A stretch of 61,255 nt of DNA, the filler included, from Sphacelaria rigidula (taxonomy: Eukaryota), in NCBI GenBank assembly GCA_964200075.2. It is 10 parts of 10 records of this genome, joined end to end, with 100 filler letters (N's around TTAATTAATTAA, not from the genome) between each part and the next. Parts side by side here need not be neighbours in the genome. Positions count along the whole stretch, not along the records: positions 18,409 to 24,444 come from CAXNAA020022651.1; 9 more parts are not named here. One strand, 5' to 3'. Shown here in pieces: positions 271 to 59,629 of the stretch. Each line of letters begins with the position of its first letter. Position 1 is the stretch's first letter. A program made the position numbers and the translations under genes. The notes under the pieces are model-generated. The model was given only the letters and a program-made list of their open reading frames with translations, did no database searches and was not told where the DNA came from.

Positions 271-315
271 GTACTCATGATCATGCATGCCATCGTCATA
301 AGACCATTGACCTCG
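271..315 (-). mobile_element. 5'-truncated 3' end of the C-tailed retroelement (partner type)
   Basis: G run followed by GTACTCATGATCATGCATGCCATCGTCATAAGACCATTGACCTCG, matching the start of 59182-59484. Confidence 0.8.
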
Positions 316-2771: not shown

Positions 2772-3824
2772 CTGCATGCCAGAACGACGAGCGTATGAAA
2801 GACAAGTAGAAAGGAAGGAAGGGGAGAGCAGAGATTCTGACATCAAATTGAAGGGCTGTATGTATACATTCCTCAAACATTAACATATACACCACGCAGA
2901 CATAATAGGCTTGGCAACGAACTCAGGGTAGTTCTCCGGTATTCCAGACCAAAGTTTTGCCTACTCAATTCTGACCCAAAATCGAGAAAAATAAAATATT
3001 CCGACTGTAAATTGGGTGAGGACGCCGAAAGCGAGGTGCCTTTTTCGGTATGAACTCTTATTTCATTGGAAAATGACTGCCGGAAAAAAAAGTTCGCACC
3101 GCCAATTCGGGGTATTCAAGGCATGTAATAAACAAAGGAACCCCGGGAATCGAATCTATGCTATCGCAATAGGGGGATAATGGTGATAAGCGGCCGAATC
3201 GGGCGATGTCAGTCTTGGGCGTACACCACTTGAAGCTTTTAGCACATCGACCGACGGATCCTGCCCAATTCATTCAAATTTACAACAACCCGAGGGCTCA
3301 AGTTGCCCCGCTCGGGTGTCAGTACATTCAAACACCTCATAAAGTGTCAAAAATTAATTGCATGGCAAGTACGACTACATGGAAAGCATCTTCAAAGCAT
3401 TGATGCCTCATGTGGAGGTTGGGCCCATGGTCTTTCCAGGGATAGGAACGCAGCCGTCTCCGGGGGTGGTTTCCCCCGTTTCCTGTCCTGTGGCAAACGA
3501 GCGCTACTTCTCCTGACGATGCTCAGGAATACACAATGAGAGCGTCGATGTTTCGACGATACCTTTCATGCCGTCACGAGCATCATGTAGTTCCAAACGG
3601 TCAACACTTAAATAACACCCCCCAGGTTGGGGGGTTTGGGGGGGGGGAGTTGTGTTCATCTCATGGTCGGGGGAGAAGGAGAAGGGTGGTTTCGAATCAG
3701 AAGGGACGGTGCATACGTTCCACTGACCACTTGCGTGTTCAGGGGCCTCGTCATTTGCCTTTAGCAAGCCCTGACGATAAACCATGATCTCAGCGCCTAC
3801 TTAGGAAGAGGGGGGGGAGGGGTC

Positions 3825-3888
3825 GTACTCATTTGTTGCTTGCCTCATAACAGTCGCTCAACCATTGGCCATGCATCCCTTCCGAGAC
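3825..3888 (-). mobile_element. 5'-truncated 3' end of the C-tailed LINE
   Basis: G run then GTACTCATTTGTTGCTTGCC...CATTGGCCATGCATCCCTTCCGAGAC, homologous to the LINE end at 18607-18670. Flanks are loosely duplicated (CTTAGGAAGAGG / CTTGGGAAGGAG). Confidence 0.75.
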
Positions 3889-5000
3889 ATTCTTGGGAAG
3901 GAGATAAAAACAATATATTCCCCGGGTTGTATGCAATCCTGCTAAGTAAAACAAAAGGTGATACTACTGAGGTTGAGTTTCATTGGTACCAGTCACGCGT
4001 TTGGATTAATCCTTTGTCCAGCCGCAAATGGCTCAAACGTCGGATAACACCCCCTTTGCGCTGAGATTGCTCAAGGAGGGCATGCAGTGATTTCATCCGC
4101 AGGAAAGGGGATGAGGGGAGAGGGCGGTCACAAGGGAATGATTTGTGGTAGATACGCTCTAACGATACCCCCCTCTGTTCGGGGGCATCGATTTCATGTG
4201 TAAATGCTGATGTATCTGGCGAAACCGCAGATAAACACCCTTCACCATGTCTGGGCAGAGGATGGGGCGATTTCATCTCCGGGTGGAAAGAAACGGAGGG
4301 GAGGGATGGTTTGTTGTTTACACGTTTTATCGATGCGTTTTTGTGTTCAGGCACATCGTCGTTAATGTGAAACAGGCCAAAACGGTAGATACCACCCGTA
4401 TGACAATCGATTATTGGGGGGGATGCGTCTATAACACCCCTGGATAGGGAAATATTTCATTCTTCACTATTTTCGTATTTTACGTACCATTCGCACGGCA
4501 TAGGCCAATACGGTGGATACCTCCCCACAATTTACGAAAGGAAACACCCCCGGGGACAGCTATTTCCTCGGTCTCCTGCGCTACCATGCACCCTTCCCCC
4601 ACATGTAACTTCACCGATGTTTTTTTTCATATACCGTCACATTTTGACATTTTGACATATTTTGGGCTCTTGACGAGTTCCCTAGTGTATTAAACTCGCG
4701 AAACAAAAAACGTGGCCTGGAATAGCAGAGAATTATCCTATACAGTACGAACCGTGAAGCTTCTCCGCACAGCGAGCACCATACCAAGTCGGTATCAACA
4801 GGCCTTACTAGGTACCCTCTCCCTCCCCCCCTCCCTCCCTCCCCCATCCCTTCCCCGCGCGCGCCTGCTTCCCCAATAAGCACTGACTACGTCAGCCAGC
4901 AAAGAAAACACCCGTATAACCCTCAAAGAGGAAGGGAAAGAACCGACGGTTGTTGCAATTGTCGACGGGTTATTTAATTTATATAAAGTAGAGGGGGGGG

Positions 5001-5121
5001 TACCCACTTGTTACCTGCCTTCGTCGTTTGACCATTGACCACGCATCCCTTTCCAGACGGAGCACATATAAAGGAGGGGAGAGTGTACCCATGATCATGC
5101 ATGCCATTATCATGAGACCAT
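5001..5121 (-). mobile_element. Two adjacent 5'-truncated C-tailed retroelement ends (5001-5063 LINE type, 5085-5121 partner type)
   Basis: Each begins after a G-rich run. The flank motif TAAAG(G/T)AG.GG appears three times (about 4983, 5069, 5122), as expected for serial TSDs. Confidence 0.78.
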
Positions 5122-6036
5122 TAAAGGAGGGAGGGGGGGGGGGGCAAGAGATTAAACTATGCGAAAAGAAGTAAACGAACAGAAGTTTCCAACGTAACAT
5201 TAAGGTGGATCGTACAACTAACTAACTAACCAACTAACTGACTAACTAGCTAACGAACAAACTGCAAGCTGGGTTCTTGCCTGAATGCAAAGCGTCGTGC
5301 TGATCGATTATTTCCCCCCTTCAGGATACCTGGCTAATATCAGGTATACTTGTATTTCAATAGTGACTACCCGGGATACTGTAACACTGAACATTTAAAT
5401 AGACAAAATCTGCAGAGACGTGTGCACATCAAGACTTTCTTTTTTCCGTGAGAGATTGAACGAATGTGCGGAAATACTAATAATAATAATTAATAAAATC
5501 CCCTTCAGGTGAGTCACGTCAACTCATCGCAAAATTTACATGAGCAAGCGAGCAAACACCAGGCGGGGCAACGCTTCTGCTTCGAAGTACTTGATGTTTT
5601 GCTTCACATGAAAGAAAAACCTCACGATTATGTTATTTCGACGACAACAGCCAAAAGTTCAAGTTAGAAAATAGAGGTCGACAAATGTTTTGTCGCACTT
5701 CAGGATCAGGACGGGAGGGGAAAAAAGCCAGCAGCGGCACAAATTCACATCCTGGACAGAAGAAAATACAGTATTAGAAAATGTACTGCGTACAGTATCG
5801 ACTACTGCGTCTATTGCGATATACAATATATTATATACTGTACGCAGTACACTTTCAGACAATGTAATCCGTTGTCCAGGGTGTGCACAAATTCATCCTG
5901 AAGTCCGAGGTTTCGTGTCAGAACTCAGGATGGAACGAACAGGAATCACCAACACCCTTACCACCACTGTCACATCCAGTTCAAAATCAAATTACTTTTT
6001 TTTTCCCCTCACACTTTGAACCCCTCCCCTTCCTCG

Positions 6037-18190: not shown

Positions 18191-18408
18191 GCTCTCCGGG
18201 GGAGGGGGGGGGGGCGGGGGGGGGGGCGGGGGGGGGGGATAAGTGTCCCGCAAATTTCCCTGGGCCCCCCCCCCGCCCCTCCCCCCCCCCGTTCCCCCCC
18301 AGCTCTCCNNNNNNNNNNNNNNNNNNNNNNNNNNNNNNNNNNNNNNNNNNNNTTAATTAATTAANNNNNNNNNNNNNNNNNNNNNNNNNNNNNNNNNNNN
18401 NNNNNNNN

Positions 18409-18459
18409 GTTTTACAGGTATCTCACCACGAGACCCCAACCTCCATGTGGATTTGACAT
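18409..18459 (-). mobile_element. 5' head of a second C-tailed LINE copy, cut by the scaffold edge
   Basis: Near-identical to 23064-23114 (GGTATCTCACCACGAGACCCCAACCTC.ATGTG.ATTT.ACAT followed by a G run). Confidence 0.75.
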
Positions 18460-18516
18460 GGAGGGGGACGATAGGGGGACGGATCATGTGGGGAGGGGGG
18501 GGGAAGGGGGGGGTTC

Positions 18517-18581
18517 GTACTCATTTGTTACTTGCCTTAGTTGTTGTACCATTGTTCAAGCATCCCTTTCGAGACGGAGCA
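18517..18581 (-). mobile_element. 5'-truncated 3' end of the C-tailed LINE
   Basis: Direct repeat of 18607-18671, bounded by CATG-G-run sequences on both sides. Confidence 0.85.
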
Positions 18582-18606
18582 TGGGGGAAGGGCGGGAGGA
18601 GGGGGG

Positions 18607-21600
18607 CGTGCTCATTTGTTCCTTGCCTTAGTCGTTTGATCATTGACCACGCACCCCGTTCGAGACGGAGCGCCGTTCCTACTCCCAATAGAGACACCTC
18701 CAACATTCCGGCGCTCATTACGTTTTCTCCATACATTACAAAAAACATTTTACATATCTTATCTCCGTCCTGTTTCGCCGTCTGTGGCCACCATCTATCT
18801 CCTAGTCTAGCCATCGCTTCTCGCTACTGTCTAATGCATCAAAGGGTTTCATGCCACCTTCGTTCACGTCCCGCATTTCCCCCTCTAGCGCGTCGCGTTC
18901 CTCATTGTACACTTCACATTCTGCCACTATATGACTTGTGCTCTCTATGCTTTGCCACAGTGGCAATTCTGTTTATCTACTTCCTCCTCCTTTCGATGAC
19001 TGGTGTCTTTCTTCTTTCTGGCAGGTCTAGGTCCCCAACCCGAACTCACCGTTTCTTATTTTACGCAGCGTCCATTGGTCCATGCAAACATGCTTTCATT
19101 CGGATCCCCTCTCTCAACCGCCCGTATATCTCCAGGTGTTCTTCCTCGTCTACCTTGCGTCTGCGTGCTCATTTTCCCCTTATTTCCATCATATTATCAT
19201 ATCTCTTACTTTTGCCTTGTACCCCGCGTCTTCATCTATGGACAGCATTTCGTCTTGGTTTCCTCCCGTCGCATCCATAGTTCCACGACTTCTTGATCCC
19301 ACCTTATTCCAGCGTTCCCTGTCGTACTTTTCTGAGATACAGCCTTATCAACTATAGCGGGTAATATGTTTTCTCTGCATGTTCTTTACGCTATATTGCC
19401 ACCTCGATTTCCTCATGTCTCTGTTTGAAGTGAGTACATTCCCAACTGTGCTCTCAGCTGTATTACTCGTCGTTTTCGAGAACCCAAGTATCTTCTTAGC
19501 TGCCGCCGTCTGTACTGTTTCCAACTTCTCCACCAACTTCGCGTTCCCCTGCAATACTTCTCCTGTATATTCCAGCTTTGGTACGATCACGTTCATCAGG
19601 ATACATCTCTTGATTCTCGTGTCAAGGTGCGGGTCTCTAAGGATCACGTCCACCCTACCTATCTATGCCTTTCCCTTTTCTATTACTGTTTTTATGTGTG
19701 CATCCCAAGAACAAATCCTTGGGATCTCTACGCCGAGGTACGTATACTGGTTGGTCTACGATCGGCAGTTCCTCTTTTCCTCACTTCTATTTGAAGTCTA
19801 TCGTCTGATCCCAGCTTTTCACGGCTTTTTCCACAACCCATTCCTCCATACTGTGTCATAAGCCTGTTTCACGTCCAGGAAGAAATAGTACTTTTGTCAG
19901 CCCGGTGTATTTCCTACCCTGAAGAACCTTACTTGGTATGTACACATAGTCTACGCAGCTACGGTTTGGTCTACATCCTGATTGTCCCTCGCTGATTTTG
20001 TCTTCCTTTTCTAGCACCGTTCCTACTCTATCGTTCAGAATCTTACAGAATGCTTTCCCGACCGTGCTCAGTAGCGTTACCCCTCCATAGTTTCCTGGGT
20101 CAGCCTTGTCTCCTTTTTGAAAAGGTTGGCAACTACTCCTTCTCTCCGTCTCTCGGATGTACTCGTTGTCCCAGATCCAATTGTACAGCATCACCATCAT
20201 GGTATTCACTCCCTCTCCCCCGTACTTCAGAAATTCATTCACTTTTTTGTCTACCCCTGCTGCGTTTTTGTTCTTGAGTTTAGCTACGCACTCATTTACT
20301 TCATCTCTGATGAACTCTCTCTGTGCTTCTTTCGAGCCTCTATCCTCCCATTTTGACTTCTCTACATTATTTGCCGCTGCCCATGCGTTGATTGATTTTT
20401 CGAATTCCATGTCGAATTTCGTGGTTGTTTCTGGTGTTCCTAGTTTTCGGTAATGCTCGACTAGCACTTCTCTCCTTCCCTTCGAACTACTGACCATTTT
20501 ACCGTTCTGCGCCCGGAGTATAGCTATCCCCTTGTCCATCTTTCCTGCATGGTTTCTCGTTATCCCCTTTATCCCTGCCCACATTCATTTCATTCCGCCG
20601 TCGAAATCTTTTTTTGTTTTATTCGTTACACTTTCCCATACTTCCTTCTTTTCTGTTGTACCATACTTTTTACTTCCTTTCGAGCTTTAGTATACTCATC
20701 CCATCCTGCCGTAGTTTCACTCGATATCTATCTCGCGTGGGCCTCCCTCCTTCCTCTTACGGCGTCTTTCACTTCCTCATCCCACTATTTTCCTGCTCTG
20801 TTGCATATGATCAGTTTCCTCTCTATGACTCTACTCGCTGTGTTCTTGACCAGCTGCTCCCATACTTCTAGGATCTTCTCTCCTGCCCGATTTCTTTCCA
20901 TTTCGGTATCGACTTCTCCTACGCGTTCCAACAGCTCGGACAATTTCACCGCATATTTGGCCATCTCTTCTTCGAAGTCTCGCTGGGTTTTTTTTCATAT
21001 CTAGTTTATCGATTATCCAGTTGTACAACTTGCTACCCCGCCTATTTCTTTGAGATCTCGTTTGTTGGCTTTCTGTCCATATTAAGCAATGATCTGTAAA
21101 TCATTCGTCCTCCGCTCACACATGCACTTTTCTTTACCAATCCCATGCTCTACCACTATATAGTCAAGAAGGGGGCGCTCTATCTCGTTTGTGTATTCTC
21201 TAGTCCATGTCCATTGCGCCTGTGGCTTTTGTGCTCTATCATTCAGCGTCTTCATCTCGATATGGTCGAGCAGCTTGCGCATTTTCCACATTCGTGTTCT
21301 ACTTATCTTCCCCGTATTGCCGAATGATATCATCCGGTTGACCTGCTCTTCCTACTCTTGCATTCAAATCTCCACCAACATTACTTCTCCTTGCCTTTTG
21401 TACTTATGTACATCTGCTGCTGTCTCTCCAAACCTCCGTTGTATACCGCTTACCTTACTCTTCGATTCTGGGGGCATGTAGATGTTACCTACGAAGAAGT
21501 GCTTCGTTCTCCGCTCTCCTGGTACTCTTAGCTATATGCTCTCGTCAAATTTCGCGTCGTCGATCACTTCTATACTACCAGATAGATATTCCTTGACTAA

Positions 21601-23114
21601 GAATCCTGCCCCCGCCGCTCCCCTGCTCTTGAACTTCTAACCCTTTTGCGTTTTCCCTATCCATGCGTACTCTTCAACTTTGGATCCCATTTCCGCCCCC
21701 TCTTTCTCCTATGACTCTGGGATTCCTACTATATCCAGGTCGTGTTAACTCACTTGTCACGCTATCTCTTCTCCTTTGCGCTTGTCTGTGGCAAATCGCC
21801 ACACTTTCCACGACCCTGTTCTTAACTTCCTTTTCGAATCATCATCCACTCTCGTGTTGTCTACTGTTCTCTCTCCGTCGCTTTTAATTATATTTCCCTT
21901 CTTTGGTTGTTTTTCCTGTTTCTACGCTGGCCTTTGTCTATTCGCTTCGGGCCGCTATATCCTCTGCCTTTCCCCTTCCGGGCACTCGCCTGCTCCTGCC
22001 TTCCTCCCCCTCCGTTTAACCGTGGACTACGCCCTAGGTTTGTTGTTCCATTTAGCTATGCATACTCTCCACCCTACCCTTCTAACCCATGCCGACACCC
22101 TACTTGTCTCTACCCTTTCCGACTCCTTGCTCGCGATCTGTTTTAGTGTGACTTGAAAGTGTTCTCCCTCCCGTCCTACTTTTCCTCCTGCCAAACACCA
22201 CAATCTAATCCCACTGCATCTCATTTGAAACCCTATCCTCGCCATATCGCTACGGACTCCGAATACCAGCACTACTAGTACTCTCCGCGTCCACTCTCTA
22301 CTTCTCCATTCGCCCTTTCCTTACCCTCTCTCTCTCTCTCGATCTCTTTCGACAGAATCTCCCGCGTAATCGTTACGAGTGTATTGGTGGGATGTACCCA
22401 ACGTACTTGGACATCCCAATCCTTGTACATGTTGTGGGGGGTCTGGTGCCTTTCAGTTCTTTTGCTGGCTTACCGACACTAAATGATGCCTCCAACACGT
22501 GCTCGTAGCCTAAAGCCAAGTTCAACACCTTCAACACAAGTATACCCGAAGTTTCCGCCAGGCGATCTTTATGGTAAACCATCCAGACGTCCCACGATCG
22601 TATCGTCCATCTTCTTGTCCCTCTGCTCGACTGGTTACTTTCCTCCAGGAAGGTCATTTTTACCGTGCAAGGTTCAAGGACGGTTTGCATAACACAAGGT
22701 CTCGTTCACATCGGGATCTCCCGTACATGACTTTTCCCACTCCGTGTACGGTTCACTATGAAACGCTACTTCACTAATACTTCCGAGTATACCTTCGCCG
22801 CCGGAAGCTTGGTCAACGGTTCCCCCACACTTTGTACTAGCCTCTATTTTTCAAGATCTCAAGAAGCCTACGTACTGCTCGGTGCTCTTTCTCGTAGGTC
22901 ATGTGGTTGGTCGTTGGTAAAGCGTGTGTTCCATTAATGCAGTATGTCTTGACGTTTATAGCATGCGTTGTCCACCCCTTCCCTCATTAGGCGCCTTACC
23001 TAATGTCGGAAATTTGAGGAAAAAGGCTGACCAGATTTCCACCGCCTGCTGAAAAGCTGTTAGGTTTAACGGGTATCTCACCACGAGACCCCAACCTCAA
23101 TGTGAATTTCACAT
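18607..23114 (-). mobile_element. Near full-length degenerate non-LTR retrotransposon (APE endonuclease + RT + CCHC finger; RTE/RTEX-like, clade unresolved)
   Basis: APE motifs (DLDIVGI.ES, GAGFLVK, FVGNIYMPP, LLDYIVV) at about 21750-21080. RT motifs (KLKNKNAAGVD, EFLKYGGE, KGDKADPGNYGGVTLLSTVGK, QSGCRPNRSC, YDTVWRNGL, YTYLGV) at about 20300-19700. C-terminal CHCG...SHIVAEC. ORF ends at TGA followed by a C run. The QG/FADD core is deleted in this copy, with many frameshifts. Inclusion of 22370-23114 is inferred from the matching head at 18409-18459. Confidence 0.9.
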
Positions 23115-23274
23115 GGGGGAAGTAGTGATGACCCTACCCTTTCCGTACTTGTTATGTGTTATGTATTTTTTGTATTCTCGATTGGCATGTAAGGTGGTCA
23201 GCCTTAACGCTATTACTTACTCTGCCCAGGTTTGCTTTTATTCTTGTTTATCTTTGTTATGACATGGAGGGAAG

Positions 23275-23478
23275 TGTAACGCGTGAGAGGACCGCGTGCT
23301 TAGAGGACCGCGCCGAAGTACAAAACACCTCAGGATCGACGTTTTTCAAAACCAACCGGGCCAGTCCCTGCATATACTACGCCCTTGACCATGACCCCGA
23401 CACTAACCCTAACCCTAACCATAGGGATATTCAAATTCCGATGCGATCCTCTAAGCACGCGTCCTCTCACGCATTACA
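23275..23478. mobile_element. 204-bp MITE with TGT...ACA termini and 5-bp TSD GGAAG (Ginger2/TDD-like)
   Basis: ~37-bp TIR TGTAA(C/T)GCGTGAGAGGACCGCGTGCTTAGAGGA. GGAAG at 23270-23274 and 23479-23483. Internal CTAACCCTAACCCTAACC. Confidence 0.88.
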
Positions 23479-23519
23479 GGAAGAATGTCGGCTACTTCCC
23501 GTCTTTACATAGGAAAGTA

Positions 23520-24075
23520 TATCTGTTTTTATCGCTATTTGACGTCTACATCCGGGCTGTGTTATGGTAAGTTGAAGAAAATGGGAGCTTAGCTTCGTCA
23601 TTCGATGTCTATGTCCGGGCTGAGTTATGGTAGGTCAAAGAAAAAGCAGGGTTAGCTTTTCCATTTCATGTCTATGTCGGGGCTGTGCTGTGGTAGGTGC
23701 AAAAAAGAGGAGGGTTATCTTTTCTATTTCATGTCTGTATCCGGGCTGTGTTCTGGTAGGTTGAAGAAAATGCAAGGTTAGCTTCTCTATTTCATGTCAA
23801 TGTCCAGGCTGTGTTATGGTAGGCTGAAAGAAAAAGGAGGGCCAGCTTCTACTTTTCATGTCTATATCCGGGCTGTGTTCTGGTGAGTCAGAGAAGAAGT
23901 GGGGTTAGCTTTTTTATTTCATGTCTTTGTCCGGGCTGTGTTCTGGTAGGTTGAAGAAAACGACGGTTAGCTTCTCCATTCCATGTTATGTCCGGGCTGT
24001 GTTATGGTAGGTTACAGAAAAACGATGGTCAGCTTCTCCATTCCATGTCTATGTCCGGGTTGTGTTATGGTAGAA
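23520..24075. repeat. ~63-bp minisatellite, 9 units
   Basis: Variants of the core CCGGGCTGTGTTATGGTAGG recur at 23552, 23615, 23678, 23741, 23804, 23868, 23931, 23992 and 24055. Confidence 0.92.
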
Positions 24076-24334
24076 AGAAAACAAACCATTGGTATATCAT
24101 GTCTATAACCATATTGTGTTATTATGGAGGGAAACCAAATTGGTTATTTAATTTTTTGCATATCTTTTGTGTTTGTCGGTCCGGGACTTTTTTTTTATTA
24201 GTGGCGATTTTTGGTACAGGTACGGTGACAAACTGTACATTTTGTGTCTGGGTTCTGGTGGCTTGTTTTTTACAGCGTCGTTACCACTCGACGCCACCCC
24301 AAGAGTCTAGCGGTGAGGGAGGGGGGGGGGGGGG

Positions 24335-24360
24335 CGTACTCATTTGTTGCTTGCAATGGT
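24335..24360 (-). mobile_element. ~26-bp insertion of the C-tailed LINE 3' end with a perfect 20-bp TSD
   Basis: CGGTGAGGGAGGGGGGGGGG at 24311-24330 and 24361-24380 flanks GGGG-CGTACTCATTTGTTGCTTGCAATGGT. Confidence 0.88.
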
Positions 24361-24600
24361 CGGTGAGGGAGGGGGGGGGGACGGAGAGGGCTTGATCTTC
24401 TGAGACTCCGGGCTCGTCCCGCGCAAGAGGGGGGGTTCAACGCANNNNNNNNNNNNNNNNNNNNNNNNNNNNNNNNNNNNNNNNNNNNTTAATTAATTAA
24501 NNNNNNNNNNNNNNNNNNNNNNNNNNNNNNNNNNNNNNNNNNNNATTTTCAGACCGTCGTGGTAACGCCCAAGCTAGGTCTGGCACTGTGAGGGAGGAGA

Positions 24601-33038: not shown

Positions 33039-33240
33039 TGTAATAATGCGTGAGAGGGCCGCGTGCTTAGAGGACCGCGCCGAAGTCCAAAATACCTTCA
33101 GGATCGACGTTTCTCGAAATCAATCGGGCCAGCCCTGCAGGTACCACGCCCCTGACCATAACCCCAACACCAACCCTAACCATAGGGATGTTCAAATTCC
33201 GATGCGGTCCTCTAAGCACGCGGTCCTCTCACGAATTACA
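33039..33240. mobile_element. Ginger-like MITE copy
   Basis: Same TIR and interior as 23275-23478. Further partial inverted ends start at 33663 and 35288. Confidence 0.88.
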
Positions 33241-34651
33241 ACGCGGCCCTCGGGAGGCAAAAACAAGCCTCCGGAGGCCTTCAATCTCTGGAGGAAACCA
33301 AACTCTGCCGCCCGAGAGTGCCGCGCACTTCTCCGGAAGAATCTGGGGATAGCAAAATGCCTCCGGAGGGATGCGCGGCCCTCCAGAGGAAAAAACAAGC
33401 CTGCGGGGGCGTAAATTCCCTCTGGAGGAAACCAGAGATTACTCCTCTGGAGGGCCGCGCACCCGTCCGGAGGCGTTTAATTCCTCTGGAAGCTCGAAAC
33501 ATTGACCGCCGTGGAGGAACTTTGGGGCAGCCAAATGGCCGCGTATGCATTCTTAGGACAAGAGATTAGGTTAGGTTGCGCGGCCGTCTCGGGCGATAGA
33601 GTTTGGTTTCCTCCAGAGATTGAAGGCCTCCGGAGGCTTGTTTTTGCCTCCCGTGGCCGTGCTGTAATGCGTGAGAGGACCGCGTGCTTAGAGGACCGCA
33701 TTGGAATTCGAACATCTCTATGGTTAGGGTTAGTTAGGCTGATGCCGTGATAACCCCCCCCCCCCCCGCCCCAGAATATACTGGCTGGTTTGAGGAGGCA
33801 GAATCTACCTGTGAGTCAAAATAACAAAAGCCAATCACACCGAGCAGCTGGCAACTCCCGCACTTGGAATCGTCGTCGCCTATATCGCCCATAGAAGCCG
33901 CTTCATACAGTCTGGAACCAACTGTCATTCGGGATAGGGACATTTTATTCGTGGCGGTTGTGGGGCTGGCTTCTCGGGGGGGAGGGGGGAGGGCTATCGC
34001 GGCATTGCTCTTCACGGGTTCTCAGTTACAGTAGCTTGCCTCCCCTACTCTTCGGTCAAGCCAGGCGTCATGGATATGACTGATCAAATATTTTATATAG
34101 AAGTTAATATACCCGCTCCCTCCTGAAGGGCCGCAAATGAAAAAAAGAGGGGTGTCGGTTGGGAGGTTCCATATCGACGCACCGATGGAACGCATCATAT
34201 TTTTCGTTCCAGTATTACAAGAGATAGATAGACAGAGAAAGGGAGACATAGAGCGCTGGTCCTGCCACAGCTAAACGTAAAGACCCAAAGAGTATTCTAC
34301 GGCATCGCTGTCGCAGACGCTTGCACCGTCCATTGTTTCATGCCCCCTACAAAATAGCGAGGAAAATCGAGGTTGCCCTCCTCCCTTCGGTCGATTTCCA
34401 CGCCCAATCAACCCTTTTCTTGCATCGGTTTAGAGGTGGCTCATCGCGTCCCCTGCTCTTGAATCAGGTAAGCTCCCTCAGGTAATCTAGAATCAAATAA
34501 CTTGGTTCACTTATACGTACCCTTGTTCACGCAACTTACCTTACCTAGTCCAAACGACTTGGTTCACCCACACTGAGGAATTCACCTTCCCTGCTCTTAA
34601 ATCGAGTAGCCTCCATCCCAGCTTGTATAGTGTCAAGTGAATTTGTTCACC

Positions 34652-35172
34652 CACGAACGCAGCCATTTGGCTACCCCCCAAAATGCCTCCAGAGGGATAC
34701 GCGTGTAATGCGTGAGAGGACCGCGTGCTTAGAGGACCGCGCCGAAGTCCAAAATACCTCCAGGATCGACGTCTCGCGAAATCAATCGGGCCAGCCCTGC
34801 AGGTACCACGCCCCTGACCATAACCCCAACACTCCTTTGAGCACGCGGTCCTCTCACGAATTACAACGCGGCCCTCGGGAGGCAAAAACAAGCCTCCGGA
34901 GGCCTTCAATCTCTGGAGGAAACCAAACTCTACCGCCCGAGAGTGCCGCGCACTCCTCCGGAAGAATCTGGGGATAGCAAAATGCCTCCGGAGGGATGCG
35001 CGGCCCTCCAGAGGAAAAAACAAGCCTGCGGGGGCGTAAATTCCCTCTGGAGGAAACCAGAGATTACTCCTCTGGAGGGCCGCGCACCCGTCCGGAGGCG
35101 TTTAATTCCTCTGGAAGCTCGAAACATTGACCGCCGTGGAGGAACTTTGGGGCAGCCAAATGGCCGCGTATG
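34652..35172. mobile_element. CACTA/CMC-like MITE carrying a nested Ginger-like MITE (34704-34865, TSD ACGCG)
   Basis: Ends resemble CACACGCGGCCATTTGGCT. ACGCG at 34699-34703 and 34866-34870. Interior matches 45962-46294. Confidence 0.78.
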
Positions 35173-36509
35173 CATTCTTAGGACAAGAGATTAGGTTAGG
35201 TTGCGCGGCCGTCTCGGGCGATAGAGTTTGGTTTCCTCCAGAGATTGAAGGCCTCCGGAGGCTTGTTTTTGCCTCCCGTGGCCGTGCTGTAATGCGTGAG
35301 AGGACCGCGTGCTTAGAGGACCGCATTGGAATTCGAACATCTCTATGGTTAGGGTTAGTTAGGCTGATGCCGTGATAACCCCCCCCCCCCCCGCCCCAGA
35401 ATATACTGGGTGGTGTGAGGAGGCAGAATCTACATGTGAGTCAAAATAACAAAAGCCAATCACACCGAGCAGCTGGCAACTCCCGCACTTGGAATCGTCG
35501 TCGCCTATATCGCCCATAGAAGCCGCTTCATACAGTCTGGAACCAGCTGTCATTCGGGATAGGGACATTTTATTCGTGGCGGTTGTGGGGCTGGCTTCTC
35601 GGGGGGGAGGGGGGAGGGCTATCGTGGCATTGCTCTTCACGGGTTCTCAGTTACAGTAGCTTGCCTCCCCTACTCTTCGGTCAAGCCAGGCGTCATGGAT
35701 ATGACTGATCAAATATTTTATATAGAAGTTAATATACCCGCTCCCTCCTGAAGGGCCGCAAATGAAAAAAAGAGGGGTGTCGGTTGGGAGGTTCCATATC
35801 GACGCACCGATGGAACGCATCATATTTTTCGTTCCAGTATTACAAGAGATAGATAGACAGAGAAAGGGAGACAGAGAGCGCTGGTCCTGTCACAACTAAA
35901 CGTAAGGACCCAAAGAGTATTCTACGGCATCGCTGTCGCAGACGCTTGCACCGTCCACTGTTTCATGCCCCCTACAAAATAGCGAGGAAAATCGAGGTTG
36001 CCCTCCTCCCTTCGGTTGATTTCCACGCCCAATCAACCCTTTTCTTGCATCGGTTTAGAGGTGGCTTATCGGGAGGACAGCCACCTCGTGGCACCTTGCG
36101 ATTAGTATGACATATCACTCACCGCGCACGTCCAAAATTTTGGCTGCCTTCTTCCCCGTGTGTTGCGTTGCGGATAAATAGAGGTCTGGTGTGCCTCGCC
36201 AACTCTGTAACACCTCCCCCAAAGCGGTCTCAGCGCGATGATGGTGGAAATGTAGGTGCCGCGATGACCGACGACCAGTTCTCTACCGTTCTCTCGGTTA
36301 TGCTATAGGGAGATCAGAGGAGATAGGCGTCACCTTCCATGGTTCTCTCGATTACCGCTGTGCATCTCGAGTGTATGACCCACATGTGCCACCTGCTGAA
36401 GAGAAAGCCAGCTCCGCGGCCCATAATGAGCCGAACAGTCCACGTCTAGAAATCTTTTTATGTTCCCTTTCGCATTTTAATTAGACTTCTCCTGGCGGCG
36501 GGCCGATGG

Positions 36510-41559: not shown

Positions 41560-41700
41560 ACTCGCCGAACACACCACGGCGCTTCGCGCTTTGTGAACGA
41601 TTGCAAGCCTGATCCGGCAAAAACACGGCAGGCTTCGTCCAGGCTTTGTAGGGATACGAGGTCAACGGTCATACGATTATGGCATGGGAAATCACAAGTA
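41560..41700 (+). mobile_element. 5'-truncated partner element between C runs
   Basis: Matches 43440-43580; preceded by a long C run and followed by CACCCCACCCC. Confidence 0.8.
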
Positions 41701-42609
41701 CACCCCACCCCACCCACCCGCGCCCATGTTTCCTGGTCTTTTATTTCACGTTTGCCTTTTCCGAGGCTAGCCTGACATTTCACCTCTACTCTCATGTTGT
41801 TGAACTTTATGTCATGTCCAAGAACGGCATCCTATCATGCTAGACAGGATCTTCATATCACTATTTCTCATGCGCACTGACTGTGGTACGATAGCGCTGT
41901 GGCGTATTGACCGGTAGCTTGGGTCATCTGGATCTGCATCTGGATCGTACAGATCACTGTTGGCCTTCTAGTCAGCAGACGCTATGTCAAGTACCCGTCC
42001 GACTCTCAACGGTTGCGCTTCACATTGGAGTCGAGACTTCATCATCTATTGTTCTTTCGTTGGTTCTCTTCATCCATCAAGCGACGAGTGATGTCACACG
42101 TGCCGGTAATCATAGAAAATTGTTCCGAGAATGCACATGCACTGCGCGTGTGCACGCTGCTTCATTTTATTACAAAATATGTAATGAGTGACGAAAAATA
42201 TCCAAGATGAGGAGAATATGCTGACCGGATTTTTTACACGCGAAAACTATCGTCCGAATTTTATTCATACATATACGAGCGGGTCCAGCTGTGAGGATAA
42301 CGAAACAGCGGAAAGGGCCGGCAGGCGGTAATTCGAAGAGTTGAGCGCTGGAAATTTGACACAAAATTTTCATCACCAGTCCGGACAGGACTAGTGTCTG
42401 CACACTTGAAAAACAAATTAATAAAGAAGTTGGAGTGACTTGAAGTTTATACGAAAACAGGAAAATTGCCATAACTTTGTGTTAAATTGAGAGTAACGAA
42501 TGTACGTTCAACCAGGTGGTGGGTAATCGCGTCCCGGGCACTTCTGTAAAATTTCAGCCCATAACTCGTCGAATTGGGCCCGGACGAGCAGTTCTCGTGT
42601 GACCGGGCT

Positions 42610-42690
42610 GCGCCCCCGTGCTCCAATGGTCAAACTGGTAAATATCCGATTCCAATTGCACAGGTTACGAGTTCGAATCCCGACATGATC
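42610..42690 (+). mobile_element. tRNA-derived SINE head or tRNA pseudogene
   Basis: A-box-like TGCTCCAATGG and B-box GAGTTCGAATCCC at tRNA-like spacing; acceptor stem does not close. Confidence 0.45.
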
Positions 42691-42965: not shown

Positions 42966-42998
<33 letters not shown>

Positions 42999-43203
42999 GG
43001 GGGGTCGATTCCACGAAAAGGTGCTCATGAGTGTGTCAGACGACCTATAAACAATACATTCGCAGTGCGCTTGCACTTGGATGGAAGCGACGTCAAGCAG
43101 CATGAAGGATCGCGAATGTTATTTATCGGTAACAACTGCGTTCGAGCAACTGTTGCTGCTTTCGTGGAATAAATTGCCCCAAATATCCCCCTCCCCCCCT
43201 CCA

Positions 43204-43303
43204 GAATGTTGGAGGTGTCTCTATTAGGAGTAGGAACGGCGCTCCGTCTCGAAAGGGATGCGTGGTCAATGGTCGAACGACTAAGGCAAGCAACAAATGA
43301 GTG
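43204..43303 (+). mobile_element. 5'-truncated 3' end of the C-tailed LINE
   Basis: Encodes NVGGVSIRSRNGAPSRKGCVVNGRTTKASNK*; CCCTCCCCC on both sides. Confidence 0.88.
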
Positions 43304-43312
43304 CCCTCCCCC

Positions 43313-43580
43313 TGGCTGTCTCTGGAAGTGGCGATACTAGAAAATTAAGGAAGTCATCGTACGTTGTCATCCAAACGCAAGATAATCAGTAGACTTCGGG
43401 CCGAACAATCTTAGCAAGATGTAGCTTACCTTTCATGCGACTCGCCGAACACACCACGGCCCTTCGCGCTTGGTGAATTAGTGCGAGCCTGGTCCGGCGA
43501 AAACCCGGCGTGCTCTGTCCCGGCTTTGTAGGGATGCGGGGTCAATGGTCTGATGACTATGGCATACATGATCATGAGTA
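43313..43580 (+). mobile_element. Nearly complete partner element ending ATGAGTA-C12
   Basis: Reverse-complement homologue of 59182-59450. Confidence 0.85.
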
Positions 43581-43773
43581 CCCCCCCCCCCCTCACTCCC
43601 GGGAGGTTCTCTCGAAAGAGATCGAGAGAGAGACAGTAAGGAAAGGCGGATGGAGATGTAAAGAGTGGACGGGTAAAGTTCTAGTAGTGCTGGTAATCGG
43701 AGTTCGTGGCGATATGACAAGAATAGAGTTTGAAATGAAATGCGGTGGAGTTGGACTATACTGTTTGGCAAGA

Positions 43774-44203
43774 AACACGGGATTTTACAAATTGGGGATC
43801 AATCTTTTATAGGAGATGAAAACCCGGAGGATTAAAATCTTCATATTCACACCAAATCTTCGAAGTATGCTTCCATTTCTTCCTTGCTGGTAGCTGTTGA
43901 CAACTGTTACACGCCATACGAATTTGGATTTCGACAACCGAAATGTCGGGGTCCTAGGTGAAAAAACAATTTTGGCGTCCGATCGAACACCTAAAATCCC
44001 CCCAAATTCGTTTTTCATCTAGGACTCCGACATTTTGGTTATCGAAATCCAAATTTGCATGACGTGTAGTAGTTGTCAATAGCTACCAGCAAGTGAAGAG
44101 ATGGAAGCATACTTCGAAGATTTGGTGTGGATACGAAGATTTTGATCCTCCGGGTTTCCATCCTCAATAAAAGATCCATCCCTAATTTGTAAAATCCCGT
44201 GTT
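43774..44203. mobile_element. AACACGG palindromic MITE, TSD AAGA/GAGA
   Basis: The empty site is visible in the LINE copy near 22190, where the 4 bp occur once (as AGGA). Confidence 0.9.
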
Positions 44204-45961
44204 GAGAGGGAAAGTAGAAAGAGAGGGAGAACACTTCCGAGTCACGCTAAAAGAGAGCGTGAGCAAGGAGTAGGAAAGTATAGCGACAAGTAAGGTGTCG
44301 GCATGGGTTAGAAGAGTAGGGTGGAGAGTATGCATAACTAATGGAACAGCAAACCTAGGACGTAGCCCACGGGTAAAGGGAGGGAGAGAGAGGCAGGAAC
44401 ACGTGAATACCTGGAAGGGGAAGGGGGGGGGGGCATAGCGGCCAGAAGCAACTGGACAAAGAACAACGTAGAAACGGGAAAAACAACCAAGCAAGGGAAA
44501 GTGAAGGTAACAGCGACGGAGAGAGGACGGCAGACAGCATGAGAGCAGGTAATAGTTCGGAAAGGAAGTTGAGGATAGGATCGTGGAACGTGTGTGGGTT
44601 CATCACAGACAAGCGCAAAAGAGAAGAGATTGCGCTACAAGTAAGTAAATACGACCTACATAGAGTTGAAATCTAACAGTCATGTGGGAAAGAGAGGGCT
44701 GGAATAGGATGCAAAGTTCAAGAGGACGCATGGATAGAGAAACAATGGAAGGAACAGAAGTCCAGAACCAGGGGAGCGGGGGTAGTAGGAAGAAATGGAA
44801 ATACATATATACGCAGAGGACATGGGTACCATAGATCATTGCCTAATATGGACAGAAACCCAACAGACGAAAGTTAAAAGAAATAGGCGGGGTGGGAAGT
44901 TGTACAAAAGCAGAATCGATAAACTAGAAATGGAACAAAATGGCAAGGGTTTCAAGAAGAGATGGCCAAAAATGCAGTGAAATTTTCCGAGTTATTGTAA
45001 AGCGTACGTGCTGGTGATACCGGAAAAAAGGGATCGGGCAGGAGCAAAGATTATAGAAGGGTGAGAGCAATTGGTCAAGACCACAGCAGCAAAAGCCATA
45101 TGGAAGACTCTTATCGTATGCAACAGAGCGGTAAAATGGTAGGACGAGGAAGAAAAAGAGGCTATAAGAGTATGGAGAGAGGCCCATGCGACATGGATGT
45201 CGAGCAAAAGTACGGTAGGATGGGATGAGTATACTAAAGCTCGAAAGGAAGTAAAAAATATGGTACAGCAGAAAAAGGAGGGAGTGTGGGAAGATGTAGT
45301 GAATAAAACAAACGAATATTGACTGGATTTGTGTGACGTGAGTTGACGCGGTGCGGAAGTGCTGACCCAATCCGCGAGACCAAAATGAAAGACACGTACC
45401 GGGGGAGAGATGGATTGATCCCTTGAGACCACGGACTCATCCCGGGGAAGGGGAGGATTTCAAAGTGTGAAGAAAAACAAAAAAATAGATAAGATTATTC
45501 AAGGTAGGAAATACGCCGGGCTGATAACGAATTGTTTCTCTCTGGACATGCAAGAGCCTCATGACACAGTATGGAGAAATGGGCTGTGAAAAAAGTTGTG
45601 GGAAGCTAGGATCAGAGGAAAGATGTGGAGAATGGTGAAGAATATGACAGAATGTGCCAAAAGTGCTATGATGCTAGACGGGGAAATATCGAAATATTTT
45701 GATATCTTACAAGGAGTTGCGCAAGGATGTACGTTATCAGCTACTTAATTCAAGGTATTCATTAGTGACCTGACACTAGCTGTAGGAGCAGCGAATCAAG
45801 CAGTCTAGGTGGGTGAAGATGTTATATCAGGTTTGACGTTCGCGGATGATTTTGTGGGGATTTCAGGAATGGCAGAAGGATTGCAAAAACAAATGGAAAA
45901 TGCTCTGGGATACACGAGGAAATGGAGAGTGACAGCAAGTGTCAACAAATGTGCGGTACTC

Positions 45962-46294
45962 CACTCGCGGCCACTTGGCTACACCCCAAAATGCCCCCGG
46001 AGGGATGCGCGGCCCTCCAGGGGGAAATCAAGCCTCCCGAGGTCCTCAATCCCCCTGGAGGAAACCAAACTCTACCGACCCGGAGGGCCGCGCACTCCTC
46101 CGGAGGAATTTGGGGGTATGCGCGGCCCTCCAGAGGCAAAAATAAGCCTCCGGAGACGTTCAATCCCTCTGGAGGAAACCAAAAAGTCTCCTCTGGAGGG
46201 CCGCGGACCCCTCCGGAGGCGTTCAATTCCTCTGGAGACTCGAAAAGTGTACCCACCTGGAGGAATTTTGGAGCTAGCCAAATGGCCGCGTGTG
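45962..46294. mobile_element. CACTA/CMC-like MITE, 2-bp TSD TC
   Basis: TIR CAC(T/A)CGCGGCCA(C/T)TTGGCT with many subterminal CCTCTGGAGG repeats. Excision restores the RT frame KCAVLVCNEDK. Confidence 0.82.
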
Positions 46295-46525
46295 TCGTCT
46301 GTAACGAAGATAAGAAAATTTCGGTAGAGTTCAAATGGAAGTAGGGAGAGGAGGAAATACCGATCGTAGTCCAGTATACATACCTTGGCGTAATATACTA
46401 ATAAACTGTTCTTGGGATGCACACATAAACAAGGTGATGGAAAAGGTGAAGGCACAGATAGGCAGGATGGACGTGATCCTCAGAGATTCGCATCTAGACA
46501 CTAGGATTAAGAGATGTGTCCTGAT

Positions 46526-46636
46526 TGGTTGATTGAATGATTGATTAATTGTCGAACTTTCAATGACCACCCATGGGTCTAGCCGTGATCGCATGATACA
46601 CTCACTCAAGAAAAGGAGGAACAGAAAAAAGTCGAA
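46526..46636 (-). mobile_element. Short (AATC)n-tailed retroelement fragment inserted in the LINE
   Basis: Degenerate (GATT)n at the left end; GAT duplicated at 46523-46525 and 46637-46639; absent from the other LINE copy. Confidence 0.6.
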
Positions 46637-47707
46637 GATGAAGGTGATTTTACCAAAGCTGAAATATGCGGGAGAAGCATGTTAGGGAAACGTGAAGTTG
46701 GTGGAAATTTTGGAAACAGTACAGATGGCAGCAGCTGAGAAAATACTTGAATACTCGAGAACGACGAGTAATAGGGTTTCGGGAGCAGAGTTGGGAATGT
46801 ACTCACTTAAAACAGACAGAGACATGAGGAAATTGCGACGTCAATGTAGGTTAAAAAACATGCAGAGAAAGAGATTGCCCGCTGTAGTTGATATCATGAA
46901 CTACATGTTGTACATGTTTTCTACCCGTGATTCATGCGAGATTATTCAAGTGTAAATGTTTCCCCCCTTCCGCTCATGCAGCATGAATTACTTGTACCTG
47001 TTTTCTACCCGTGATTCATGCGAGGTGATTCAAAAATCCATGTTCTCCAAATTTCCACTTATCCGGCATGATTCATGGGTACATGCTTCCTCTCTGCTGT
47101 TTGTACAGCATGAATCACAGGTATGTTTCTTCATTTTCATTCATCCAGCATGAATCACATGTACGTGCTCTCCACCTGTGCTTCATGCGAGATAGTATAT
47201 CAAGTGTACACGTTTCCCACTTTTCATTCATACGGCATGAATCAAGCTTACACATTTTCCATTCACGAGTTTGCCGGACGATTGAATCAATGTGATATTT
47301 CTTCCGCCAGTGGGTCGTACTGGAACTGTGAGTCGTACACATTTCGTAGTCTGCATTCGTATGGCGCACTGCTTGGAGTGTACACATTTCCCGTTTGTGA
47401 TTCGTGCGGTGCAACCTTGACGTACAACTTTACCATTCGCGCTTCATACGGCACGACTCTTTGGCCCATGATTCATAGCTATCATTCATCAAGAGTCAAC
47501 CCATATGAGCTCTGACTCGTCCCAACCGTGAAAGGACCCCCTTACCGTGATTTCAAGAGCCGTCATCCCGTGTCCACAGATCGAACATGTTTTAAGGAAA
47601 CACACACAAGGGTGGCCACTGATGCATGTAATACGAGACTTGTTCGACTGTATGACCCGAATTATTCTCATCACCTGACAAAAGGCGGTATGGCCAACCT
47701 AACAGGA

Positions 47708-48150
47708 AACACGGGATCTTACAAATTGGGTATGGATCTTTTATTGGCGATGAGAAACCCGGAGGATAAAAATCTTCGTATCCACACCGAATCTTCGAAA
47801 TATGGTTCCATTTCTTCACCTTCTGATAGCTATTGACAACTACTACACGTCATACAAATTTAGATCTCGATAACCGAAATGTTGAGGTCCTAGGGGGAAA
47901 ACAAATTTTGGGGAATTTCGGGCGTCCGAACGGACGCCAAAATGGTTCCGAATTTGTTTTTCACCTAGGACCCCAAAAATTAGGTGATCGAAATCCAAAT
48001 TTGTATGGCGTGTAGCAGTTGTCAATAACTCTCAGTAGGTGAAGATATGGAAGCATATTTCGAAGATTTGGTGTTGATACGAAGATTTTAATTCTCCGGG
48101 TTTCTCATCCCCAATAAAAGATCCATCCCCAGTTTGTAAGATCCCGTGTC
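47708..48150. mobile_element. AACACGG palindromic MITE, TSD AGGA
   Basis: AGGA at 47704-47707 and 48151-48154. Confidence 0.93.
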
Positions 48151-48230
48151 AGGAGCTTATGTGGCCGCATAACCCGGATTATAATCATCACTTCATTTAG
48201 GGTCACAGAATAGTGGTGGGAAACGCTACG

Positions 48231-58554: not shown

Positions 58555-59181
58555 GTTCTTTACAGTCTGTCAAAAGCCGTTCCGTTTACGTGATGCAGCG
58601 CATGTATCTAGAGCTAGAGCCAGAAGCTGTTGCTATGGAGTGGTGTCTGTCTGCTCTCAATAATGCTGCGTTTGAAACGATATCATTCACGCCCCATTAT
58701 TCGCCGACAAATCACTTGGCGTTTGCCTGCTCATTGCTGTCTCGGCGTGTTCCGTTGATCGCACTTACTCTTCATAGAGGTACTGCCTACACTGTCTGTA
58801 GAAGTGTTGCAAGTACCGCGGTTAGAGATGGTGCCAGTACTGTGCGCACCACCCGATACTCGACGCTCTAATCTACACCGTGCCCCCCCCCCCCCCCCCC
58901 ACCCCCCCCCCCCCCCCCCCCCCCCCGCACCCCCCTTCTACACACGCCACTCGTGGGTATCTTCGCCGTAGGTTTTCCTCCACAAGGGACCAGGGCGTGG
59001 AAGATCATTGCCAAGAAAGATTAGGCGAACTTTTCACTGCTTGGTTTGCTCTTTGTCATGCTCGCTGCTGTCTGCGAGCTGCGTCTGCCGTTCTCGTCGT
59101 CATTGTCATTTCGGTGGAAAATTTGTGTGTGCGAGGTGTACTCATGATCACGCATTGTTTGTGTGCGCGTGTGTGTGGGGT

Positions 59182-59484
59182 GTACTCATGATCATGCATG
59201 CCATAGTCAGAAGACCATTGACCTCGCATCCCTACAAAGCCGGGACGGAGNNNNNNNNGTTTTCGCCGGACCAGGCTCGCACTGAAACCACCAAACGCGA
59301 AGCGCCGTAGTGTGTTCGGCGACTCGCATGAAGGGTGAGCTACATCCTGAGAAGATTGTTCGACCCGAAGCCTACTGATTATCTTGCATATGGATGACAG
59401 CCTCCAATTACTTGCTATATTATCTGGCATCACCACTTCCAGAGATAACCACGGCTTATACACTGCCTCATGGGTGTCTCACCA
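59182..59484 (-). mobile_element. Complete ~300-bp partner element of the C-tailed LINE
   Basis: Flanked by GTGTG...GTGTGGGG on both sides (TSD-like). A further ~15-bp stub of the same end lies at 59138-59152. Confidence 0.85.
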
Positions 59485-59629
59485 GGTGTGTGTGTGTGGG
59501 GGGGGGGGGCAGCACATGTATTCCATTGTAACTCGGTCACATCCGTCGAACACGAAATTTGCGAGAATTGTGTCGAAGCTAATTCCACTTGATTGGGTAG
59601 CTCTAAACAGACAGAAAGCATGGAGCTCT

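Follow-up and report, generated by a model that had tools for sequence, protein, structure and literature searches.

A brown-algal LINE of RTE-X type and its SINE-like partner in Sphacelaria rigidula, with 3' ends fixed beside C runs

Background

How the reverse transcriptase (RT) of a long interspersed element (LINE) comes to its RNA and primer depends on the 3' end of the element. L1 uses poly(A) for this, and old L1 and Alu tails act as new targets. In the eel pair UnaL2/UnaSINE1, in RTE/Bov-B and in CR1, the short interspersed element (SINE) carries the 3' stem-loop region of the LINE, and a short simple repeat is then used for priming. Elements of the R1 and R4 clades, such as Kibi, Koshi, Mino, Waldo and Dong, lie within di- to tetranucleotide repeats that flank both of their ends. 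Here, we describe a LINE from the brown alga Sphacelaria rigidula whose open reading frame (ORF) runs almost directly into a C run. The window analysed (61,255 nt of assembly GCA_964200075.2) consists of ten pieces of ~6 kb each with N spacers between them, and these, together with public runs, supply the evidence from within the genome. Its central element, LINE copy 1, appears from its sequence to be an old, broken copy of a non-LTR retrotransposon of the RTE-X type. Taking all observations together, we consider it probable that this LINE and a SINE-like partner have spread by target-primed reverse transcription (TPRT) at G/C runs, from an RNA with a short (C)n.

The closest described systems are known from Ectocarpus. 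A survey of its transposable elements (PMC12477816, Genome Biol 2025) reports seven RTE-X families with 16,418 copies, and the most abundant Ectocarpus family is a non-autonomous element of ~600 bp. The entries of its supplement describe RTEX-1_Ec32 (5867 and 5511 bp) by 'single EN-RT ORF; (C)n 3'' with a 'C-rich' target-site duplication (TSD), and RTEX-2_Ec32 (5582 bp) by '(C)n termini/TSD'. For RTEX-N1_Ec32 (607 bp), the head is given as unknown, the '60 bp 3' end 83%' refers to RTEX-1/2, and the element 'can be present in tandem'; together with RTEX-N2_Ec32 (188 bp), it has a 3' end of 60–100 bp in common with RTEX. Among the curated notes, RTE is entered with (CAA)n and CRE with (CA)n, and the main text, in its accessible part, neither uses the term 'C-rich' nor discusses the tail. 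A preliminary description of the window, made from its sequence, had allowed that such an element may already be catalogued, and the RTEX-1 and RTEX-2 entries bear this out: the feature is real and is a new member of a kind catalogued in 2025 in a related alga. At the level of titles and abstract openings, literature on non-LTR retrotransposons with poly-C yielded no C-tailed LINE, and the listed literature on RTE-X had nothing on tails. The accessible part of one study (PMC5381506) describes poly-C tracts within L1 3' untranslated regions (UTRs) that still terminate in poly(A).

Results

A fixed 3' end followed by a C run

The minus-strand frame of copy 1 ends ...AACAAATGA at a stop codon (18612-18614) that is followed by GCACG (to 18607) and then by C6-T-CC-T-CCC..., as had been described. 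Stop codon and C run are 5 bases apart (GTACG or GCACG), which leaves virtually no 3' UTR, and the C-rich run represents a tail, a target duplication or both. The LINE kind of end, mostly ...AACAAATGAGTACG, is repeated at 3825, 5001, 18517, 24335 and 43304, and a second kind, ...ATGATCATGAGTAC(A), occurs at 271, 5085, 41701, 43581, 59138 and 59182. A C run of at least 4 lies within 5 nt of ten of the 12 window termini (background 2.0% of 120,102 positions; binomial 7e-16), in line with the earlier statement that nearly all copies abut such a run. For a C run of at least 6 the count is six of 12 (background 0.53%; binomial 2e-11), and at least 8 C occur among the next 12 nt at ten of 12 (background 0.94%). 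The two exceptions to the C-run rule are 5085, where C4 begins at nucleotide 6, and 59138, which is followed by CC only. No A run, and hence no poly(A)-tailed 3' UTR, was found at the 12 window ends or in three of three external copies, as the preliminary description had it.

Of the dozen places that this description had assigned to the LINE end or its partner, ten are indeed 3' ends, in five of the ten pieces (271, 3825, 5001, 5085, 18517, 18607, 24335, 43304/43313, 59138 and 59182), but 41560 and 43204 are 5' junctions by C runs; two further 3' ends, at 41701 and 43581, terminate the elements beginning at 41560 and 43313. The 5' truncations span 18 nt to full length, so that both the fixed 3' end and the variable 5' ends stand, to which a strong 5' hot spot at the base of a 67-nt 3' module has to be added.

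Independent copies end in the same way. A scan of metagenome contigs with an alignment of intact relatives gave seven loci. The end of one of them, L007, reads ...AACAAATGAGTACG and C10, the same end is followed by C8 in L008 and by C13 in L014, and the stop lies 5 nt from the C run in all three. The contig of L014 (CBRFFM010000043.1, or G001:C43) consists almost wholly of this algal LINE and was placed in a bin labelled 'uncultured bacterium', which is a case of eukaryotic contamination; the metagenome-assembled genome G001 has one module copy only. A pattern scan of viral contigs for the last 17 nt returned six chance matches, in phage-like contigs, and in none of them did a C run follow.

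Contigs of four public runs were matched to 43100-43700 with a likeness threshold of 85% (6423 for X8, 6758 for X9, 54715 for X2 and 84718 for X1), and the junction counts that follow are those among the matches listed. After ...AACAAATGAGT the consensus is ACG and then C for the rest of 30 letters (110, 97, 517 and 697 contigs), with an agreement of 0.53-0.58 across the four runs. Upstream of the G of GCTCCGTCTCG (43241) it is a long C run and GT (79, 86, 405 and 457 contigs), whereas the LINE body continues instead at 43201-43205 in 520 (X2) and 927 (X1) contigs, and joints from 43301/2 back to 43241 mark tandem units. Because of this junction consensus in four runs, we conclude that the fixed end with its C run holds genome-wide and that a large share of the copies are tail-only, start at one base and lie in poly(C).

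Target-site duplications beginning with C

The 5' flank (30 nt) of 12 copies was compared with the 3' flank (45 nt) and scored against 500 shuffles; the row for copy 1, in which the 5' end was wrong, is left out of the count, so that 11 copies were usable. Six of them have a significant TSD (p < 0.05) of 8–19 bp: CCCCTC(TA)CTTTATAT at 5001 and the 19-bp C10-TCCCTCACC at 24335 (both p = 0.002), CCCCACACACAC at 59182 and CGC(G/A)CACACAAA at 59138 (both p = 0.006), CCTCCCCC at 43204 (p = 0.016) and CCCTCCTT at 5085 (p = 0.036). All six start with C, five of them C-rich, and therefore the nicked bottom strand that primes synthesis would end in G beside the 3' end of the element. This agrees with the proposed G/C mirror of the L1 priming geometry, and with the TSDs extracted, the marks of TPRT named alongside it (fixed 3' end, 5' truncation and TSDs) are all present. 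These few cases suggest a nick site made up of a G run and then A or T on the nicked strand. The gap from GTAC to the TSD is 0–6 nt in the significant cases. C-rich flanks lie on both sides of most copies, though not of 59138 and probably not of 3825 or 271.

As far as the window's sequence goes, the TSD pattern fits TPRT at G/C runs, and it points clearly to a C-rich target and only weakly to a separate C tail. Old flanks serve as new targets: the fragment at 24335 occupies the C run where copy 1 probably begins, and the adjoining pairs 18517/18607 and 5085/5001 are further examples.

A 67-nt module and tail-only units

The 3' module comprises the last 20 codons, the stop and GTACG (GCACG in copy 1) and reads from GTGCTCC... 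to ...GAGTACG. In its predicted fold, GUGCUC pairs with GAGUAC in a closing stem that is accompanied by two hairpins; the L007 sequence has an energy of -19.9 kcal/mol (z = -2.5 against mononucleotide shuffles). The LINE and the tail of the SINE-like partner have these stems in common, and the loops differ in length and sequence. A covariance model (R2) built from six LINE units detects 11 modules in 83,940 bases, SINE tails included, and 92.5% of the pair cells in its alignment are standard pairs. As a model, the fold is plausible and conserved, not proven by covariation. No Rfam family reached its gathering score in the window, and none matched the L007 end at E <= 1.

Tail-only units of 67 nt begin at the first base of the closing stem (the equivalent of 43239) and have poly(C) upstream, in hundreds of contigs. 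Relatives at ~40% identity keep a C-terminal G-C-V-V-N-G; in P0154, P0156, P0158-P0168 and P0178, the protein ends ...G-C-V-V-N-G...A-M-A-A-stop after a variable, low-complexity linker. The codons of this motif equal the GGTCAATGGTC core, which is also kept in the non-coding SINE. Because of this identity, and because the tail-only units start at the first base of the closing stem, the module would have a role at the RNA level, and the C-terminal motif is probably an RNA-level constraint read as protein.

More tentatively, and with doubts on our own part, the module with a short (C)n may be a self-sufficient template for TPRT primed by poly(C)/poly(G). The RT might then grip the module, which is the last 20 codons of its own gene, and start on a G-run primer paired to C, and it might leave or switch the template at the base of the closing stem, or else the RNA might be cut there like a tRNA precursor. 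If this were true, the hundreds of 67-nt tail-only retroposons in poly(C) would be accounted for, and the LINE family would chiefly account for the unusually large number of long C/G homopolymers in the genome.

At 42610-42640, CCCCCGTGCTCCAATGGTCAAAC resembles the tail module minus its first hairpin, with a C run before it.

A SINE-like partner with the same 3' module

The preliminary description had mentioned a partner of the LINE end; the partner is now better described as a SINE-like element of ~305 bp that has the 67-nt module in common with the LINE. Its similarity to the LINE is confined to its last 52 nt (E 1.6e-5). ARAGORN finds no tRNA in the window, and no Rfam family matches 59100-59540 at E <= 1; because the head has neither a tRNA nor an Rfam match, we use the label SINE-like and do not call the element a true SINE. 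The Ectocarpus curators reached the same conclusion for the head of RTEX-N1 (PMC12477816, supplementary entries). An origin of the head from the LINE 5' UTR was considered and rejected, as the sole match was 13–14 nt long (E 1.3-4.4). In the copy that starts at 43313, the last letters are ...ATGAGTAC and a C run comes next, at 43581-43592 (12 C counting the last base of the element), and the copy that starts at 41560 has C12 directly 5' and a decayed C-rich run 3'.

Proposed mechanism and alternatives

In the mechanism that we favour, LINE and SINE-like element would both spread by TPRT. A nick by the endonuclease would fall in the bottom strand, where a G-rich run has its 3' edge. The resulting primer, with G at its end, would be extended on an RNA that the RT chooses through the 3' module, and a second nick 8–19 bp away would create the duplication that starts with C. 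The RNA most likely carries a short (C)n after GTACG, because each donor copy has a C run after it and read-through would carry this run along; a (C)n inherited in this way would pair with the G-ended primer. Each insertion would leave C runs on both sides as new targets, which would explain why copies stand in tandem or nested and why long C/G runs are in excess. In Ectocarpus, the family and its partners are more abundant than any other repeats (PMC12477816). The LINE and its partners probably shape the homopolymer landscape of brown-algal genomes, among them G tracts on which replication and sequencing are difficult.

The C run could also belong to the target entirely, if the RNA ended in GTAC(G/A) with no C tail and an endonuclease specific for (G)n/(C)n chose the site, so that the adjoining C would be duplicated target, much as in the microsatellite-specific LINEs. 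Such an element would leave the C run within the TSD, as in 24335, 59182, 5001, 43204 and 5085, and would have C runs in its 5' flank, as the long or full-length copies do (C12 at 41548, C15 at 48932 and C12 at 59498) and as the poly(C) 5' of hundreds of tail-only units would also suggest; the curators' '(C)n termini/TSD' for RTEX-2 (PMC12477816, supplementary entry) agrees with it. Nevertheless, we think it unlikely that the target explains everything, given that the run is longer on the 3' side than on the 5' side, by 4 C in 24335 (14 vs 10) and by 3 C in 5001, and that the CA-rich TSD of 59138 makes a C tract non-obligatory. In 3825 and 271, moreover, a C stretch of 7–12 stands before the candidate TSD with no counterpart on the 5' side, although the TSDs of these two copies are not significant (in 3825, CTTCC(C/T)AAG, p = 0.14, preceded by a C-rich stretch of 16 nt).

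The run might instead be made at integration, by an RT that adds untemplated G to the primer or slips, and be absent from both RNA and target. Extra C that varies from 0 to ~12, and C8, C10, C13 and C14 among otherwise near-identical ends, are what this would produce, but homopolymer length drift accounts for the varied lengths equally well, and neither the C runs on the 5' side nor the C at the start of all six significant TSDs is explained, which makes it a poor candidate. Two-colour chemistries give poly(G) read ends, and short-read assemblies are unreliable on homopolymer length. That the G/C homopolymers are an artefact of sequencing chemistry or assembly is nonetheless scarcely credible, as the runs are internal, show TSDs and unique flanking sequence, attach to the single sequence GTACG across four assemblies that differ in origin and across four runs, and were hand-curated in Ectocarpus as well (PMC12477816, supplementary entries).

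Several points weigh against TPRT from a C-tailed RNA as we have outlined it. Most copies do not require a C tail, as their run can be assigned to the TSD. In 59182 and 5085 the 5' C run is the longer of the two, and 59138 has a TSD (CGCACACACAAA) with no C run. Five of the 11 usable copies (3825, 18517, 271, 41560 and 43313) have no significant TSD, mostly because both flanks are plain C-rich sequence of low complexity. The 5' end of copy 1 is placed only approximately, and its candidate TSD (C run + TCC...) has p = 0.13. None of ten public runs is registered as RNA. The four that were used consist of contigs, in which no RNA end is seen; the RNA label of X8 and X9 is guessed, and no weight is placed on the higher ratio of tail to body depth in these two. 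The module shows weak covariation, with just two pairs that change on both sides, a number matched by 88 of 500 shuffles, and the structure was derived from the same sequences that were used to assess pairing. Finally, RTE-X membership rests on the labels in PMC12477816 and on likeness to unnamed Ectocarpus proteins.

Comparison with described elements

Like RTEX-1/2_Ec32, the Sphacelaria LINE has a single EN-RT ORF, a length in the range of 5.5–5.9 kb (here ~5.86 kb), a (C)n 3' end and C-rich TSDs, and like RTEX-N1/N2_Ec32, its partners have heads of unknown origin, have only the last 60–100 bp in common with the LINE and can stand in tandem (PMC12477816, supplementary entries). The Ectocarpus proteins are 46–71% identical, which indicates another family or another host than the Ectocarpus RTEX, with RTEX-1/2 compared by description alone; the partner of ~305 bp likewise differs from the 607 and 188 bp recorded there. 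On the 67-nt module, its overlap with the last codons and the tail-only units, the accessible part of PMC12477816 has nothing.

As in L1, a homopolymer follows the 3' end, the TSD starts with the same base, and the primer strand ends in the complementary run. Unlike L1, of which the family is not a member, the run consists of C and not of A, and there is neither a 3' UTR nor a separate ORF1. This LINE appears to be of the stringent type, with a specific 3' module common to it and its SINE, which again sets it apart from L1; compared with the stringent LINE/SINE pairs, its repeat unit is a single C and its recognition module lies inside the coding sequence. It resembles the microsatellite-specific LINEs in its insertion inside a simple repeat that flanks both ends, but the repeat is a homopolymer, and 59138 and probably 3825 are not inside a C tract. 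In a relative at 29% identity (L010 2480-2530, contig SPJJ01018345.1), ...TGATGAG is followed by (TC)n and not by a C run; in view of this, and of (CAA)n in RTE and (CA)n in CRE, a simple-repeat tail is the rule among these relatives and the one-base repeat its limiting case. A family with C/G as tail and target is a natural counterpart to the A/T system of L1 and would let primer-tail pairing, as opposed to poly(A) as such, be tested.

Structure of the LINE copies

The preliminary description had placed the element at 18607..23114, and this boundary proved wrong: the 5' end of copy 1 is certain to 24176 and probably lies at ~24311, where C14-TCCCTCACC starts. Its 5704 bp, minus a 212-bp insertion and plus ~366 nt of RT deleted at ~19800 relative to L007, give a whole length of ~5.86 kb. 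An earlier TSD candidate for copy 1, CTTCCC(T)CCATG with a 17-nt tail, was withdrawn, as it is LINE-internal sequence beside the flanking repeat of a miniature inverted-repeat transposable element (MITE). The MITE-like insertion (family Y), which accounts for the 212 bp, lies inside the 5' UTR of copy 1, between the monomers and the remaining LINE, and is not part of the LINE. Monomeric 5' UTRs occur in rodent L1, of which the array in copy 1 is reminiscent. A LINE copy in G001:C43 also has ~60-bp monomers in its 5' region (L015), upstream of the common 5' UTR.

Although an ORF with an AP-type endonuclease (APE), RT and CCHC had been reported for the window, the frame of copy 1 is broken. Its stop-to-stop frames are short, tblastn of the intact relative P0001 gives six segments in alternating frames that cover residues 3-840 and 965-1360, residues 841-964 are missing, and the first two Cys of the C-terminal CCHC (C-x-C...H...C) are gone. 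The longest window piece (242 aa, RT) has 68% and 57% identity to two intact proteins, of 1360 and 1328 aa, both of which terminate in the same ...TKASNK as the window frame. Among 17 stop-to-stop fragments from the two LINE copies in the window, Pfam matches were sub-threshold only (best RVT_1, E 0.014); in the intact relatives P0001 and P0002, Pfam finds Exo_endo_phos and RVT_1 only, and no RNase H. L007, which aligns with window positions 23247..18598 at 79–81% identity, has an intact ORF of 1412 aa and, apart from it, no sense-strand frame of at least 100 aa in its first 900 nt, and so no separate ORF1.

The ORF is laid out as an N-terminal ferredoxin/RRM-like domain, the AP-type endonuclease, the RT and the C-terminal CCHC, of which copy 1 retains a remnant. 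For the N-terminal domain, an AlphaFold2 model from a three-sequence alignment predicts ~80 aa of beta-alpha-beta-beta-alpha-beta with a predicted local distance difference test (pLDDT) score of 84–91 in the core and a mean of 60.5 overall. This domain has no Pfam match, and Foldseek against PDB returned nothing at E <= 0.001; the highest-ranking of the weak matches, L1 ORF1p among them, have RRM or ferredoxin-like folds and serve as a lead only. The closest named proteins are entries of Ectocarpus sp. CCAP 1310/34 called 'unnamed protein product' (57%, 71% and 46% identity for the three best). Against PDB, the RT matches L1 (E 7e-21, the best solved structure) and R2 (9e-20) about equally, which gives no clade call. 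The coordinates of all features are collected in Table 1.

Table 1. Features of the LINE family, its SINE-like partner and an inserted element, in window coordinates unless another locus is named
Feature	Position	Strand	Evidence and remarks
LINE copy 1, decayed, full-length	18608..24311	-	alignment to L007, tblastn of P0001, monomer matches
67-nt 3' module of copy 1	18607..18673	-	R2 85.9 bits, E 2.8e-24
C-rich run (C6 T CC T CCC G CCC TT C5) directly 3' of copy 1	18583..18606	-	
N-terminal domain (predicted)	L007 889-1320 (ORF residues ~46-190); window ~22317-21900		structure prediction
Monomer array, ~63 bp units, LINE 5' UTR	23537-24176	-	self-matches; 70-87% to L015 (2200-2492)
MITE-like insertion, family Y	23267..23478	.	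~37-bp inverted ends, GGAAG flanking both sides
LINE copy 2, 5'-truncated, decayed, interrupted, 3' part missing	43602..46893	+	76-84% to L007 873-4261; tblastn
Piece of another LINE 5' UTR, at edge of window piece	18409..18465	-	89% to 23064-23119, L007 109-164
Tail-only LINE unit, 67 nt	18516..18582	-	R2 82.5 bits; starts at module base, C runs both sides
Tail-only LINE unit	4999..5065	-	R2 85.2 bits; TSD CCCCTC(TA)CTTTATAT
LINE 3' fragment, 65 nt	3824..3888	-	R2 38.9 bits; then GA, C4, T, C8
LINE 3' fragment, 27 nt	24335..24361	-	flanked by 19-bp duplication, C14 in 3' copy
LINE 3' fragment, 101 nt	43204..43304	+	93.5% to L007 end; R2 97.4 bits
SINE-like partner, full-length, ~305 bp, 8-N gap inside	59182..59485	-	TSD CCCCACACACAC
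SINE-like partner, ~35 nt short at 5' end	43313..43581	+	84% to 59454-59177; tail R2 40.7 bits
SINE-like partner, 5'-truncated	41560..41701	+	80% to 43440-43591; R2 19.8 bits
SINE-type 3' fragment, 45 nt	271..315	-	then A and C7
SINE-type 3' fragment, 39 nt	5085..5123	-	C12 5' of TSD CCCTCCTT
SINE-type 3' fragment, 18 nt	59138..59155	-	TSD CGC(G/A)CACACAAA, no C run
5' end of further SINE-like copy, directly after C15	48947..48985	+	cut by end of window piece

LINE copy 2 is broken at 43778-44204 by a repeat of ~430 bp that recurs near 47700-47900 and 48200-48400 with similar translations. In its RT region, a proline-rich tandem repeat of ~330 bp is found at 45962-46294, which L007 does not have.

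Homopolymers and other repeats

C/G runs of at least 10 nt outnumber A/T runs by 27 to 10 in 60.4 kb with 48% GC. The long runs include 42967-42997 (G31), 58883-58926 (C18 A C25), 18204-18300, 41274 (G16) and 17238 (G12). About 7 of the 27 long C/G runs touch LINE or SINE-like elements, and the remainder may represent old targets or the tails of further families. The MITE-like family with ~37-bp inverted ends (TGTAAYGCGTGAGAGG...) is found at 23267-23478, 33044-33240, 33662-33733, 34703-34833, 35287-35358 and 60715-60922.

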